This document shows, piece by piece, positions 42,208 through 62,395 of a DNA stretch of 64,000 bases (position 1 is its first letter; each line of letters begins with the position of its first letter). The notes under the pieces are model-generated. The model saw nothing but the letters and a program-made list of their open reading frames with translations. It was not told the DNA's origin and did no database searches. The position numbers were made by a program, and so were the translations under genes. The DNA is from a virus (taxonomy: Duplodnaviria > Caudoviricetes), in IMG/VR virus record IMGVR_UViG_3300010965_000001, positions 128,001-192,000 of that record; one strand, written 5' to 3'.

Positions 42208-42374
42208 ATAAATATAACGAATTGTTTGTTTTATGCGTCAAAAACATTGTCTAACCAGTCATAATTAACTTTTTTTGGCGAATTAATATAATAAGCCATT
42301 ACAAGTACTATGACGATTGGACATATGATTGTGGCGATAACTATTGCCGATATTTTTTTCATAAGTTGCCTCGG

Positions 42375-42755
42375 TGGACTAGGAGGGGTTCGAACCCTCG
42401 TGTTGAACAAACACCAATTAAAAGACTACATGCTTAGTTTGATTCTGCGGAACGTCATAAACTTGTAAGAATCTAACAAGATACAAGAAAATCTATTCTG
42501 CTTTTGAATGGTACAGATAAACCATTTGTATCTACAACGTCTTATTTTTTGTTCTGACTAAGGTAAATAAGAACCTTAGGCTGCGTACGCGTATTCGGCG
42601 TTCACTGCTTCACCCATGATGAACGCCATAGCATCATCAAATGTGAATGAAGATTTCTCTTCTGCGTTTATTTGTTTTGCACCTTTTAAAGAGTTTATTG
42701 CTCCCTCTGCATGCCTTCTAATCTATACTTATCCAGTCGATTCCATATCTAGCCC
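42375..42755 (-). ncRNA. ssrA: tmRNA
   Basis: 5' GGGCTAG pairs with 3' CTAGTCC-A with G3-U70; T-arm GGGTTCGAACCC; D-like GAATCGAC; tag frame 42665-42576 AEEKSSFTFDDAMAFIMGEAVNAEYAYAA*. Confidence 0.92.
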
Positions 42756-45214: not shown

Positions 45215-45290
45215 TGGAGCGAGCCGAAGGAATTGAACCTCCATCCTCATGCTGGATTTAGCATGCCATCTTAACATTAGACGAAGCCCG
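45215..45290 (-). tRNA. tRNA with Gly-type body and atypical anticodon loop (TAATCCA)
   Basis: GCGGGCT/GGCTCGC, U73, encoded CCA; stem CATGC/GCATG. Confidence 0.7.
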
Positions 45291-45306
45291 CATATGTAAC
45301 TGTAAT

Positions 45307-45842: not shown

Positions 45843-45920
45843 TGGTATCCCGAATAGGATTTGAACCTACATTCTCCAATTATGCACCTATCGTTTAGGA
45901 AACGCGGCCAATATCGGGAC
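45843..45920 (-). tRNA. Atypical tRNA-Arg(CCT) lacking a canonical D-arm
   Basis: Acceptor GTCCCGA/TCGGGAT+ACCA, T-arm, loop TT-CCT-AA. Confidence 0.65.
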
Positions 45921-47108: not shown

Positions 47109-47585
47109 TCAACGTTCTTTATTCAAAATGTATTTTGCTTTGTAACAATTCCGTGGTGTTAAACCACTAAATCCATCCACATGAATGAAGTTGTATTGTT
47201 GCCAAAGTAACATATCCGAATCATCATCAAAAATTACATACGTGTCAAATTCAGAGTCTCTTTTACCAAGTAATGCAAAATTATCTTGAATCCATACACG
47301 TATTTCGTTTCCACGAACTGTTCCACGTCCAAGAAAAGGTGTGTAGTCAATTATCTCACCCACAAATCCAGCCTCTGCAAACAACTCACACAATCTGTCA
47401 ATTGCAGTGCTTCGTCTCCACGATGAACTAATTACAATCTTACAATCCGTATCTTTTACAAGTTCATTGAGTAATTTAATACACCGTGGGTCTAAAGGAT
47501 ACCGTGTATTATCACTCTTTGGATTGGTTTGGCTGAACAGTTCACTATTAAGAACACCGTCAATATCTAAGAATACAATTTTCAT
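47109..47585 (-). CDS. HAD phosphatase of the Swiss-Army-knife RNA repair type
   Basis: FLDIDGVLN, IVISSSWR, RGNEI, YVIFDD. Confidence 0.8.
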   Translation of the reverse strand: MKIVFLDIDGVLNSELFSQTNPKSDNTRYPLDPRCIKLLNELVKDTDCKIVISSSWRRSTAIDRLCELFAEAGFVGEIIDYTPFLGRGTVRGNEIRVWIQDNFALLGKRDSEFDTYVIFDDDSDMLLWQQYNFIHVDGFSGLTPRNCYKAKYILNKER

Positions 47586-48845: not shown

Positions 48846-48921
48846 TAGGCGTGGTAGGAGTCGAACCCACCTAACAAGGAGATATAAGCTCCTTTCCTGC
48901 AACCACGCTTGATTCACGCCC
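48846..48921 (-). tRNA. tRNA-Ile(TAT)
   Basis: AGGAG/CTCCT stem, loop CT-TAT-AT. Confidence 0.8.
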
Positions 48922-51258: not shown

Positions 51259-51801
51259 TTAGTCTGCTCCATGACCTGCCATTTTCTTTTCCTTACCACG
51301 GCAAACATGGTCACTTGCATAACTTGCTGCAGGCGAGTCAGGCTTTGCGTATGCATCGAAACCCATACTCTGAATATATCCCATAGCCTGCTTGTGGATA
51401 ACATTGCTTTCGAAGTTTTCATTTGGGTTTACATCCAAGTGAACTTCAAATGCGGTGATTTTCTTATTATCAAACAAATCAGAATCAGTTAAAATGGACG
51501 CAATATCAACTACTCTGTAAACTTCATCCCAAAGACGATTCTTTAACCTATCTCCCTTTGCCTTACCGTAAATCTTAACATTGTTATCACGCGAAAAGAC
51601 AACGTGTGCACCACGACCAACCTTGTAGATACAAACAACTGTTACATATGTTGCGGCGTCAAAACGACGGGGCTGACTGTCACATCCTACGTAAATTTTA
51701 AATTCAGAAGTAAGTTCATCCTTACGAATGTATTCTTTAATATACTCCGCGATGTTTGGAATCTTCGTTCCCTCTACCGTTTCCCATTTGAATTCTCGCA
51801 T
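51259..51801 (-). CDS. RNase H-like YkuK family protein
   Basis: YVGCDSQ..RLWDEV..EVHLD..KPDSPAASYASD; start MREF. Confidence 0.8.
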   Translation of the reverse strand: MREFKWETVEGTKIPNIAEYIKEYIRKDELTSEFKIYVGCDSQPRRFDAATYVTVVCIYKVGRGAHVVFSRDNNVKIYGKAKGDRLKNRLWDEVYRVVDIASILTDSDLFDNKKITAFEVHLDVNPNENFESNVIHKQAMGYIQSMGFDAYAKPDSPAASYASDHVCRGKEKKMAGHGAD

Positions 51802-51828
51802 AACCTTACTCCTTTGTTTTGTTAGTTG

Positions 51829-51903
51829 TCGGAGTGACAGGATTCGAACCTGCGACCTCATGGTCCCAAACCACGCGCTCTACCAAACTGAGACTACACT
51901 CCG
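51829..51903 (-). tRNA. tRNA-Pro(TGG)
   Basis: Cloverleaf. Confidence 0.9.
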
Positions 51904-52744: not shown

Positions 52745-52822
52745 TACACACAGAAGGACTCGAACCTTCATTTTCAACCATTACCTATAGTCCCGCGTAT
52801 CAGACGGGCTGGATATGTGTGC
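52745..52822 (-). tRNA. Atypical tRNA-Ile(GAT) lacking a canonical D-arm
   Basis: GCACACA/TGTGTGT, CCCGT-CTGATAC-GCGGG, canonical T-arm. Confidence 0.7.
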
Positions 52823-52829
52823 ATTGTTG

Positions 52830-52912
52830 CTCATTAGGTAGGATTCGAACCTACAGGGGCGTTAGCCGTCCGCTTAACAGGCGGGGGAGTTTACCAGTTC
52901 CTCTACTAATGA
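52830..52912 (-). tRNA. tRNA-Asn(GTT) with long variable arm
   Basis: Cloverleaf; 14-nt V region. Confidence 0.8.
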
Positions 52913-52926
52913 ATATAAATTTTTTG

Positions 52927-53008
52927 TGCATTCGGAAGGAGTCGAACCCTCGTTGGATTTCTCCACCGCTTAAGAGGCGGGTGCATAATGCCGTTCTGCC
53001 ACGAATGC
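52927..53008 (-). tRNA. tRNA-Lys(CTT) with long variable arm
   Basis: Cloverleaf; GGA-GAAA-TCC V hairpin. Confidence 0.8.
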
Positions 53009-55220: not shown

Positions 55221-55311
55221 CGGAAAAGAGAGGATTCGAACCCCCAACCCAGCTTTCGCCAAGAACTGTTTTCGAGACAGTAGCGGTCATCCAGTTACGC
55301 TTTACTCTTCC
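55221..55311 (-). tRNA. tRNA-Ser(CGA)
   Basis: Cloverleaf, long V arm. Confidence 0.9.
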
Positions 55312-56056: not shown

Positions 56057-56136
56057 TAGACTTGATAGGATTTGAACCTACATTTTCAGCTCCAGTTACG
56101 ATTAAATGTTTCGAAGACATACTCGGCTACAAGTCC
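56057..56136 (-). tRNA. Atypical tRNA-Arg(TCG) lacking a canonical D-arm
   Basis: GGACTTG/CAAGTCT, ATGT-CTTCGAA-ACAT, canonical T-arm. Confidence 0.65.
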
Positions 56137-58495: not shown

Positions 58496-58573
58496 TAGGA
58501 AGAGATGGATTCGAACCATCAGTCTCCGAGTCAATGATTCCCCGGCGTTTTGCGCTTATTAAACTATCTGCCT
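58496..58573 (-). tRNA. tRNA-like gene with 10-nt anticodon loop (GAATCATTGA)
   Basis: Canonical T-arm, CCGGG/CTCGG stem. Confidence 0.55.
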
Positions 58574-59080: not shown

Positions 59081-59328
59081 GGATGCTGTTTTACCATTGC
59101 CACTACAAAAAGTCGTTAGACAATCTGGTGGGAGTCGAACCCACAACTTCATCCTTGTTAAATCCTGCCATATGTCCTATCCGTTAGACGATGTTACCCC
59201 GAAGGGCACCACTGGGATTCGAACCCAGATTTTCCAGCCTGTTAAACACGTAGAGTGCTCTGACCACTGAGCTACCGTGCCGTCTTTTGAACGAACACAG
59301 GTGGGATTCGAACCCACGACCTCTCTAC
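59081..59328 (-). ncRNA. Array of three circularly permuted tRNA-like modules
   Basis: Order T-arm, loop-capped acceptor stem, D-arm in each unit; see findings. Confidence 0.7.
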
Positions 59329-59341
59329 TCCTTTTCTTAAA

Positions 59342-59431
59342 TGGGGTGACGAGTGGAATTTGAATCCACGATAGGGTATTATCCCAACGAGGGCCACAAC
59401 CTCGCGCAATTGACCGCTCTGCCATCGTCAC
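59342..59431 (-). tRNA. tRNA-His(GTG) with long variable arm and encoded CCA
   Basis: CGAGG-TTGTGGC-CCTCG, C73. Confidence 0.8.
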
Positions 59432-59521: not shown

Positions 59522-59836
59522 TTATTCAATGTATTTATAAAGTGGTAAAAATTTCACGAACTTTGGAAAATTTTCTCTTGGTAAAAGAACACACGCTACT
59601 TCTTGATTACCAAGAGAACTTTCCGTAATTATAACAGACCGTTCAAGATTTTTACATTGTTCAAATGCTTCGTTAGAAACTTTACATACGACTTTTTTGA
59701 ACGAATTCTGCATCCATTCGATGACTTCTGCATCTTCTTTATTCTTGTGGTATGCCGACAATGCCGCATGCGCGCATACAACAGGAACATAATTTGAAGG
59801 AACGTCATCTCTAACTACAATATACATTTTAGACAT
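59522..59836 (-). CDS. Peptidyl-tRNA hydrolase 2 (PTH2)-like protein
   Basis: MYIVVRDD..CAHA..W...FKKVVCKV..LPLY. Confidence 0.75.
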   Translation of the reverse strand: MSKMYIVVRDDVPSNYVPVVCAHAALSAYHKNKEDAEVIEWMQNSFKKVVCKVSNEAFEQCKNLERSVIITESSLGNQEVACVLLPRENFPKFVKFLPLYKYIE

Positions 59837-60633
59837 TATTGTTTCTTTCGTTTACCAATATCTTTAACAACCGCTTTCGTATGGAACTTCCTAATGTCAA
59901 CATCTTGATGACCCTTGAGAAATTCTACAATCCCTTTTAATACACCTACCAACGATTGAACGTCTGCGATTGCCGAATGCCAATTATCAACATTGACTTC
60001 AAGTGCGGTTGATAATTGACCAAGATTAGAATTAATTCTACCGTTTCTTGTCAATGCTCCCAACATTTTTGTTATACCTTCATCACCAGACTTTTCTAAT
60101 GACTGTAATGCCGGGGCGAAATACAACTGTGCAATTTTCAAAGAATCAAGAACTCTAAATCGGTTCATTCGTATTCCATAGTGTTGCCCACGTTGGTTGA
60201 TATATTTCATATCAAATGATGCGTTGTGAGCGATTAATAATGGATTCTCAAATGTTCCTAACCAACCATTAAACTCTTGTAAAACTTGTTGTTCACCTTT
60301 GAATTTTGCGTGACGTTCACCATACTTCGTCATCTTCATAATGTCACGCATCTTCATCGAACCTTTTTTCGGAGGTTCTGTATCTTGAACCTTCATCTTT
60401 GCCTGTGCGTCTTTTCTAAGACTTACTTTTTCATGGAAGATACCAACTTGTTCAAAGGTAGTTCCATCAAATGCGATTGCGGCAACTTCTGTTACTTGTG
60501 TATCAAGATTTTGCGGTTTCAATCCAAGTGTTTCTGTGTCAAAGAATATTAACGTCTGTCCTTCGAACGCCAAAAACTTTTCTAATACTTCCTTGATTGA
60601 TAGTCCGTATATCTTTTTTTCCTGTAATTTCAT
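59836..60633 (-). CDS. DEDDh 3'-5' exonuclease (Pol III epsilon-like)
   Basis: FFDTETLG, AHNASFD, H.AIAD. Confidence 0.85.
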   Translation of the reverse strand: MKLQEKKIYGLSIKEVLEKFLAFEGQTLIFFDTETLGLKPQNLDTQVTEVAAIAFDGTTFEQVGIFHEKVSLRKDAQAKMKVQDTEPPKKGSMKMRDIMKMTKYGERHAKFKGEQQVLQEFNGWLGTFENPLLIAHNASFDMKYINQRGQHYGIRMNRFRVLDSLKIAQLYFAPALQSLEKSGDEGITKMLGALTRNGRINSNLGQLSTALEVNVDNWHSAIADVQSLVGVLKGIVEFLKGHQDVDIRKFHTKAVVKDIGKRKKQ

Positions 60634-61519: not shown

Positions 61520-62395
61520 AAAAGGTTGAGAGATTACACCTTCTACGCATTTCCTTTTCGTAGATTATAGTGACCTTGCGGGTCAGTTTCCTACTTTCTC
61601 CACCAGCGTTCAGCTCGAGTAGAAATGCATGACTTCCGTTGTTTTTAACGGTGACGGTACCGATATGTATGAGCCTACTCAATCCTTGTCAATTCTCCCT
61701 GCCTTGCGAGCAGTTAATCCTTGCGGGGAATAGATGCAGACTTGAATTAAATTCCTACGCCTTGCGGGTTTCAGAACTCTCCATTCCTTTCGGTGGAGAT
61801 TTAAGCCATTTTTGTTCTCATACATGACCACGACTTTGCTGTTTTTAATTGTCTTGGGATTTGAACCCAATCTTTAGTTCCATATACTAACGCTCAACCA
61901 TTTGAGCTAAGACTGTGCAACTCACAAAAGACGTGCGTGGTCAGTGGTTCCATTCTCTTTTGGAAAACGATATGCCACACGCCCTGTATCTTTCGTCTGC
62001 TCGACTACTCAACGGATTTTCAAGATTTTGGTGCTTATGGAACAACCACACCAACACCAACCTCTTTCAATCTAAATAGAAGCCCTTATTTTGCATCACT
62101 CGGACAACTACTCTCCCCTTCATTTCTCGTTCATCGTCTCGTTTGGTATCTGCTTACTCGGCACCACCCGCTAGTCCAGTCCTACGGAGTTACCCTCGGT
62201 CTGTTCGCAGCGAAACTTCTGACATACTTCCAGCAGGATTAGTGGCTGAAAGACTCCGAAACTCGGTTTGCATAAGTGACCAATTGAGATTGGCGACGCC
62301 CTGTGAGCGGGTTAAGTCTTTTACCATATTACTACGGCTTATCTTCTCCCTTGCGGGAATGGATGTCATACCACCCATTTTAAACTTTATAATTC
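61520..62395 (-). ncRNA. Large ornate ncRNA, GOLLD-like
   Basis: About 870 nt with no credible ORF, five C-GCAA-G hairpins, embedded tRNA-like domain, own sigma70 promoter, U-rich 3' end; family call not confirmed by a covariance model. Confidence 0.65.

Follow-up and report, generated by a model that had tools for sequence, protein, structure and literature searches.

We report here that the gene at positions 52745–52822 on the minus strand of a 64,000-nucleotide stretch of phage DNA probably encodes a functional elongator tRNA-Ile(GAU), and that it belongs to a phage-specific class of tRNA-Arg and tRNA-Ile genes that lack a D hairpin. There is almost no doubt that the gene and its architecture are real. 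As judged from sequence comparisons, the D stem is re-threaded around the anticodon arm and is predicted to be assembled in trans by the connector. To our knowledge, the arm order of the cloverleaf is treated as universal outside organelles. The class is a structural variant of tRNA that differs in the wiring of the D arm, and no published description of it was found in the full-text literature and in the 2020 review of non-canonical tRNAs, with subscription-only papers lying outside the scope of the search. The analyzed stretch, referred to as the window, comprises bases 128001–192000 of a 210.5-kb IMG/VR phage record.

Two short helices are essential for the description of the gene, i.e. Hb, which adjoins the anticodon stem, and Ha, which adjoins the acceptor stem and contains zero to three base pairs. 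On the minus strand, from 52822 to 52745, the gene is composed of the following elements:

52745–52822 (−): probable tRNA-Ile(GAU), whole gene, 78 nt, re-threaded class, without an encoded CCA
52816–52822 (−): acceptor stem 5' strand GCACACA, nt 1–7, with 7 of 7 pairs to 52746–52752, including G1·U72
52814–52815 (−): U8 A9, the same in all family members; the 1 bp of Ha is a predicted pair between A9 and the U at 52776
52809–52813 (−): 5-nt connector UCCAG between A9 and the anticodon stem; its G14 is the position-26-like nucleotide
52812, 52811 with 52784, 52785 (−): helix Hb, C11 and C12 with G39 and G38
52792–52808 (−): anticodon arm CCCGU CUGAUAC GCGGG, with a 5-bp stem, a 7-nt loop, U33 and A37; GAU at 52799–52801
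52784–52791 (−): ACUAUAGG, junction nucleotides followed by the 3' strand of Hb (GG)
52778–52783 (−): D-loop-like UAAUGG, with U13-, A14-, A15-, G18- and G19-like positions; family consensus UARYUGG
52776–52777 (−): UU; the first U is position-20-like (A in Arg members), the second is the predicted partner of A9
52770–52775 (−): GAAAAU, joiner to the T arm; A15 is matched by its final U (52770), which is Y48-like
52753–52769 (−): T arm GAAGG UUCGAGU CCUUC, canonical
52745–52752 (−): acceptor stem 3' strand UGUGUGU and discriminator A73

A D hairpin (stem 10–13/22–25) is not present between position 9 and the anticodon arm, and the anticodon arm and the T arm are separated by 22 nt that carry UAAUGG and end in AAU. 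The acceptor stem, an anticodon arm with a 7-nt loop, and a T arm with a UUCRANY loop are all present, as is a D-loop-like motif with R15 matched to Y48 (UAAUGG ... GAAAAU, A15 with U48). In a search of 131 nt, the Rfam tRNA model RF00005 yielded 35.8 bits for the gene (gathering threshold 29); in the resulting alignment, the 15 D-arm positions of the model were reduced to 4 nt, and a 19-nt insert was placed in the variable region. The preliminary description had assigned a common layout without a D arm to three genes of the window, consisting of an acceptor stem, TA, a short linker, a normal anticodon arm, a motif-bearing segment ending in AAT, and a T arm. This layout was indeed read in all three genes, the other two being the following, with scores for the tRNA model of Rfam and for our own covariance model R1, which is introduced below:

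56057–56136 (−): tRNA-Arg(UCG), 80-nt class; R1 89.9 bits (in the seed), Rfam tRNA 34.8 bits; Ha formed by A9-G10-C11 with G47-C48-U49, Hb by C12-G13-A14 with U36-C37-G38
45846–45920 (−): tRNA-Arg(CCU), short subtype ending in GGAGAAU; R1 34.9 bits, Rfam tRNA 26.5 bits, below threshold
45843–45845 (−): CCA encoded for tRNA-Arg(CCU)

All three genes start with G1·U72, which is present in 33 of 108 members family-wide. A search of the whole 210-kb phage genome with R1 revealed exactly these three members of the class. It had also been noted that one of the motifs occurs in the D-loop of tRNA-Ser(CGA), and TAACTGGA is in fact the D-loop of this tRNA (55222–55311).

None of the three genes was called by ARAGORN with default settings. 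At a relaxed threshold, ARAGORN proposed an ordinary cloverleaf in another register for the Ile gene, in which the first hairpin is the D arm and the second hairpin (ACUAU AGGUA AUGGU) is the anticodon arm of a tRNA-Thr(GGU), and the minimum free energy fold of the single sequence draws this second hairpin as well. However, in this register the acceptor stem has to be shifted, U33 is replaced by A33, and the 7-nt loop on the 5-bp "D stem" is devoid of GG; the z-score of the single-sequence fold is only −1.33. Moreover, the closest Ile relatives (L041, L126, and L078:11632) are unable to form the second hairpin and have kept the CUGAUAN loop. The Thr-GGU cloverleaf was therefore rejected, and we regard it as extremely improbable. 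A class II tRNA was also considered and rejected, because the hairpin that the minimum free energy fold contains in the long region is absent from the relatives, and there is no D arm.

Relatives of the Ile gene were collected from IMG/VR with an exact pattern that joined the 3' segment to the T arm. This first scan yielded 68 stretches, most of which contained the same architecture. A second pattern left positions 15 and 48 free. An alignment of all size classes with MAFFT misaligned the anticodon loops, and therefore the covariance model was built from the gap-free class of 79–80 nt, to which the remaining sequences were aligned. The seed of the resulting model R1 consisted of 21 gap-free relatives, which included the Arg-UCG gene and excluded the Ile gene. 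R1 matched 71 sites in the first set of loci and at least 54 in the second set, for which 73 loci were listed. After removal of duplicates, at least 108 distinct members of 74–82 nt were obtained; as the members are related, their counts do not represent independent events. The Ile gene scored 50.7 bits with R1 (E = 3.7e-11, model positions 1–80), and the best ordinary tRNA of the window scored 28.3 bits. R1 had been built without the Ile gene, and this match is beyond chance. The preliminary description had taken the architecture of the three genes to be shared rather than duplicated and had suggested a covariance-model search for homologs; the search bore this out, as the three genes are members of one class with more than 100 distinct homologs of conserved architecture.

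The amino acid identities of the 108 distinct members are restricted to Arg (91) and Ile (15), apart from two members with the anticodon CAU. The Arg members carry the anticodons UCU (44), ACG (21), UCG (15), CCU (9), and GCG (2), and the Ile members carry GAU (8) and UAU (7). A family tree of 76 columns, built to see whether the Ile members had a single origin among the Arg members, is unresolved, and its strongly supported branches force at least two changes. ARAGORN in its default mode detected 3 of the 108 members, and the anticodon was correct in one case only. No RNA run was listed that contains the sequence of the window. For one member (L008), the sequencing runs listed as RNA mostly cover the neighboring ordinary tRNA, and the member itself is spanned by only two contigs, one of which is probably DNA, without information on the RNA ends.

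The same pattern was used to scan 185,579 bacterial and archaeal genomes. Among the 80 cellular loci listed, two matched R1, and both are located on contigs of metagenome-assembled genomes, of 9 and 19 kb, respectively. In contrast, the 73 viral loci listed yielded 54 matches to the model, and therefore the class is essentially phage-borne. Members were confirmed with R1 in five cultured phages, namely Vibrio phage D260 (L070:2995-3074), Pseudomonas phage vB_PaeM_Ty (L071:1495-1574, Arg-UCU), Xanthomonas phage XacN1 (L303:2495-2571), Mesorhizobium phage Cp1R7A-A1 (L304:1501-1577), and Microbacterium phage Pumpernickel (L305:1485-1562), all of them with the identity Arg-ACG or Arg-UCU. By BLAST matches only, the list is extended to Vibrio phages D254 and D51, Xanthomonas phage Xoo-sp13, Stenotrophomonas phages CM1 and RAS14, and Microbacterium phage Zooman. 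The hosts of the carrier phages range from Proteobacteria to Actinobacteria. In every GenBank record of a cultured phage that was examined, a tRNA annotation was absent at the site of the member, and the site was often seen as a gap within an annotated tRNA array.

The secondary structure emerged most clearly from the 79–80 nt class. There, nucleotides 9–11 pair with the three nucleotides directly 5' of GAAAAY to form Ha, and nucleotides 12–14 pair with the three nucleotides directly 5' of UAR to form Hb. The 3' strands of Hb and Ha enclose an 8-nt bulge, U-A-R-Y-U-G-G-N, which has the sequence of a D-loop (U-A14-R15-Y-U-G18-G19-N20). In the seed alignment, 97.9% of the cells contained standard pairs, and the covariation score was 0.859, compared to 0.25 for shuffled columns and not more than 0.15 for slid partners. 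Double changes, e.g. from G-C to A-U to U-A, were present in two of the three pairs of each helix. An independent set of 51 distinct sequences, the alignment of which was fitted to R1, was 95.1% paired and had a score of 0.872, again with compensatory changes in both helices. Two approaches were independent of the model alignment. RNAalifold, applied to a plain MAFFT alignment, returned the same fold of Ha and Hb plus a 26:44-like pair, and mutual information, calculated from an anchor-based alignment to which no structure had been supplied, recovered Ha, Hb, and the 26:44-like, 15:48, and 35:20 pairs; Hb, Ha, 15:48, and the 26:44-like pair ranked just behind the classical stems.

The size classes share a constant Hb and bulge and differ mainly in Ha (1 bp at 77–78 nt, 3 bp at 80 nt), and the covariation of Ha is seen in members of 79–81 nt. 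Family-wide, all three Hb pairs are present in 53 of the 108 members and two of the three in 54. The Ile gene belongs to the latter group, with the standard pairs C11-G39 and C12-G38. In its 78-nt size class A9-U47 is the only possible Ha pair, and this pair never varies there. The own pairs of the Ile gene are therefore few (two in Hb and one in Ha), and the case for its trans helices is thin when taken by itself and rests on the relatives. The preliminary description had postulated an arm-swapped fold. The location of a D-loop motif 3' of the anticodon arm and the lack of a D hairpin hold true for the class, but a self-contained D arm has not been moved. Because the connector (nt 9–14) forms two short trans helices that flank a bulge, the arm swap has to be corrected to a re-threading.

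The family-wide compensatory changes also bear on the question of whether the genes are decaying tRNA pseudogenes that have lost the D arm. Such a decay could account for the failure of ARAGORN to detect the Ile gene, and the Arg-CCU copy (45846–45920) might be cited in its favor, because its anticodon stem has three standard pairs and two mismatches and its 3' segment is shortened. However, the non-cloverleaf plan has been kept with compensatory changes in more than 100 distinct sequences from unrelated phages, and the acceptor, anticodon, and T stems of the Ile gene are intact. The compensatory changes exclude a pseudogene for the Ile and the Arg-UCG genes, and we regard decay as a very improbable explanation in general. 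For the Arg-CCU copy, with its three standard anticodon-stem pairs, it is possible. The short GGAGAAU subtype to which this copy belongs recurs in other phages (L013:1601-1676, L116:954-1027, and L081:1830-1904).

Several further signatures of the family are those of a molecule that is handled as a tRNA. U8, A9, A14, and G18G19 are invariant or nearly so. Of the 108 R15:Y48 combinations, 94 are A:U, 13 are G:C, and one is G:G, and neither A:C nor G:U was found. Among the matches listed from the scan that had left both bases free, the numbers were 37, 11, and one, respectively. This covariation is the pattern of the Levitt pair in ordinary tRNAs. The position after GG is A20 in 89 of 91 Arg members and U20 in 11 of 15 Ile members, and A20 is an established major identity element for bacterial ArgRS. 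The discriminator is A73 in all 15 Ile members. The anticodon loops are canonical over eight different anticodons, with U33 in 108 of 108 and A37 in 105 of 108 members. In 64 of the 108 members (59%) CCA is encoded directly after the discriminator, compared to about 1.6% expected by chance. The encoded CCA is unequally distributed between the identities, as it occurs in 63 of 91 Arg members and 0 of 15 Ile members. The signatures matter only to a molecule that is processed as a tRNA and charged, which argues that the bulge occupies the usual site of the D-loop. The retention of U8, A14, G18G19, and the T-loop together with the R15:Y48 covariation indicates that the core tertiary pairs are probably kept. 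An L-like shape is thus probably still formed, with the chain threaded differently.

A fold that unites these features can be proposed. Hb would stack on the anticodon stem and act as the D stem. The strand that enters the anticodon stem, canonically nucleotides 22–25, would come from the 5' connector, and the strand that rises to A14, canonically nucleotides 10–13, would come from the 3' side. Three connections of the chain would deviate from the cloverleaf: a bulge of 3–5 nt would bridge the nick between positions 44 and 10, U8-A9 would run straight into the "22" side, and the D-loop would go back to Y48 via Ha and GAAAA and not via a D stem. In model terms, Hb as a strand-swapped D stem appears to fit well to the 77–78 nt class, to which the Ile gene belongs. 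For the 80-nt class, a 3-bp Ha stacked on Hb could not be reconciled by reasoning with the canonical G19–C56 elbow contact, because one nucleotide only (A20) joins G19 to Ha.

A comparison with known systems underscores how the class deviates from each of them. With canonical tRNA-Ile(GAU) and tRNA-Arg (RF00005) it shares the 7-bp acceptor stem, the 5-bp anticodon stem, the 7-nt loop with U33 and A37, the 5-bp T stem with a UUCRANY loop, U8, A14/R15/G18G19, the R15:Y48 covariation, A20 in Arg and A73 in Ile members, and a frequently encoded CCA. In contrast to canonical tRNAs, it lacks the D hairpin. Its D-loop-like motif follows the anticodon arm on the 3' side and is flanked by segments that pair with the 5' connector, and the GAAAAY joiner takes the place of the ordinary variable loop. 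The D-armless mitochondrial tRNAs likewise have no D hairpin, and connectors on both sides of the anticodon arm take a structural role. However, these shortened molecules no longer carry the D-loop/T-loop signature and have been characterized as flexible (PMC7609411), whereas the phage class is found in phages of bacteria, has the full length (74–82 nt), and has retained GG, 15:48, and a canonical T-loop. An assignment of the Ile gene to this group was rejected, as it is phage-borne, has a length of 78 nt, and has kept GG and the UUCGAGU T-loop. The tolerance of the L shape for non-standard helix lengths in the D region is also seen with tRNA-Sec, which has a 6-bp D stem, and with the allo-tRNAs (PMC5389517), and Ha and Hb together comprise up to 6 bp. 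Yet in these tRNAs the order of the arms is normal, the D hairpin is closed, and the acceptor/T combination is 8/5, 9/4, 8/4, or 9/3, in contrast to 7/5 in the phage class.

An unusual order of tRNA parts along the gene is also characteristic of the permuted and split tRNA genes of Cyanidioschyzon and archaea, which are processed into a normal cloverleaf. In the phage class the acceptor stem is already built from the two gene ends, so that no cutting and joining could restore the order, and the mature RNA must be non-cloverleaf. Lastly, phage-borne Ile and Arg tRNAs are encoded in the ileZ-argN-argO cluster of the Stx phage 933W. They were considered as known members and rejected, as they are canonical tRNAs with ordinary D arms (UAGCUCA...GAGC), and the best R1 score in that region was 16.7 bits.

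In the right third of the window, the minus strand encodes about 40 tRNAs as well as a tmRNA and a GOLLD RNA. The Ile gene is located 6 nt downstream of a tRNA-Asn gene in a tight same-strand run of Lys-Lys-Asn-Ile. The region also contains the following genes:

42373–42755: tmRNA
47109–47585 (−): HAD_SAK_2 domain protein ("Swiss Army Knife" RNA repair), E = 1.9e-27, inside the tRNA array
51259–51861 (−): RNaseH_like PF04308 protein, E = 1.5e-24, inside the tRNA array
59836–60633 (−): RNase T-like 3'-5' exonuclease, E = 2.8e-9, inside the tRNA array

Searches of the phage genome for an ArgRS, an IleRS-type synthetase, a CCA-adding enzyme, and RtcB found none. Because the phage lacks its own ArgRS, IleRS-type enzyme, and CCA-adding enzyme, host enzymes must serve the three RNAs. 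The Ile gene would be transcribed together with the neighboring tRNAs, and host enzymes would trim the transcript and add CCA. The host IleRS would then charge the tRNA, guided by the GAU anticodon, A37, and A73, and the product would read AUU and AUC as the only tRNA-Ile(GAU) of the phage. No other GAT, CCT, or TCG anticodons were present among the tRNA calls of the window, in line with the earlier claim that the three genes are its sole decoders of this kind. Ile codons account for 71 per 1000 codons in the phage, and AUU and AUC together for 75% of them. That the gene carries the sole GAU anticodon in such a genome supports decoding, which we regard as its probable function; the earlier suggestion that all three genes are functional is also probable.

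The array contains several additional unusual elements. A tRNA-like gene at 48847–48921 (−) was not called by ARAGORN and scored 27.4 bits with the tRNA-Sec model of Rfam. It has the acceptor stem GGGCGUG/CACGCCU, a good T arm, and the anticodon arm AGGAG CUUAUAU CUCCU, with a UAU anticodon that would read the Ile codon AUA; its D region is odd, with AA at positions 8–9, a 3-bp stem, and 5–6 extra nucleotides preceding the anticodon stem. ATA represents 26% of the Ile codons of the phage. Another tRNA-like gene, at 45218–45291 (−) (Rfam tRNA 34 bits), has a normal acceptor stem, a D stem, a T arm, and an encoded CCA, and its anticodon loop of 8 nt (UAAAUCCA) on a 5-bp stem was interpreted by ARAGORN in the relaxed mode as containing a 4-base anticodon. 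A third, at 58496–58573 (−) (Rfam tRNA 45.8 bits, no ARAGORN call), has a D-loop without GG and the anticodon stem CCGGG/CUCGG around a 10-nt loop, GAAUCAUUGA. A tRNA-Asp gene was not found in the window. On the minus strand, tRNA-Asn (52829–52912, 84 nt), tRNA-Lys(CUU) (52926–53008, 83 nt), and tRNA-His (59342–59431, 90 nt) have long class II-type variable arms, which are unusual for these identities. The "tRNA-Asn(GUU)" that was called by ARAGORN at 59204–59281 (−) overlaps a match to the Y RNA-like YrlA (59248–59329, 36 bits, below gathering), and the region 59204–59329 (−) may thus represent a Y-RNA-like or tRNA-like module instead of a plain tRNA. The GOLLD RNA (61523–61987 (−), 180.5 bits) adjoins the tRNA array, and a tRNA-like element (61847–61916; His, anticodon AUG according to ARAGORN) is embedded in it.

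An alternative to decoding is that the Ile gene encodes a tRNA-like RNA that undergoes tRNA-type processing and, as a decoy or sponge, might capture nucleases that attack tRNAs or another host factor that binds tRNAs. EF-Tu or the ribosome could accept an RNA with this altered core only poorly, the limitation of the family to two amino acid identities would be in agreement with such a role, and so would the RNA-repair-type HAD_SAK_2 gene in the tRNA array. However, elements that are needed for charging only follow the anticodon (A20 with Arg, A73 with Ile), the anticodon loops are fully canonical across all eight anticodons, and the three genes fill anticodons for which the phage has no canonical tRNA. 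A decoy is therefore unlikely, and a decoding tRNA-Ile(GAU) is the preferred reading.

A different question is why the fold exists, and one answer is compatible with a functional tRNA-Ile. The wiring might have been selected because it renders Arg and Ile tRNAs resistant to tRNA-cleaving defenses of the host or to a nuclease with which the phage destroys the tRNAs of its host. Colicin D, which is specific for tRNA-Arg, and a CdiA toxin specific for tRNA-Ile(GAU) are examples of such nucleases. The near confinement of the family to phages, as seen among the viral and cellular loci listed, points in the same direction, and the gene with an RNA-repair domain in the array is a circumstantial hint. 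On the other hand, anticodon nucleases cut in the anticodon loop and stem, which are canonical here, and no result ties a nuclease, a defense gene, or a host to the carrier phages. As the hosts span such distant groups of bacteria, a single defense system is an unlikely explanation. Taken together, we regard selection for nuclease resistance as a tentative idea. In a wider formulation, phages would keep a second, non-cloverleaf build of L-shaped tRNA that is accepted by the ArgRS, IleRS, EF-Tu, and ribosomes of the host and that has been selected for escape from an activity, either of the host or phage-made, that recognizes the normal D arm or core of tRNA-Arg and tRNA-Ile; this proposal is speculative and at present rather doubtful.

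If the proposed reading of the class is true, the ordinary translation machinery of bacteria accepts a tRNA with a re-threaded core, and the class would explain the "missing" Arg and Ile tRNAs in phage annotations. It would also offer a new natural scaffold for the structural biology of tRNAs and for the design of orthogonal tRNAs, and the cultured phage–host pairs would allow a direct test of whether tRNA-targeting immunity shapes the structure of phage tRNAs.
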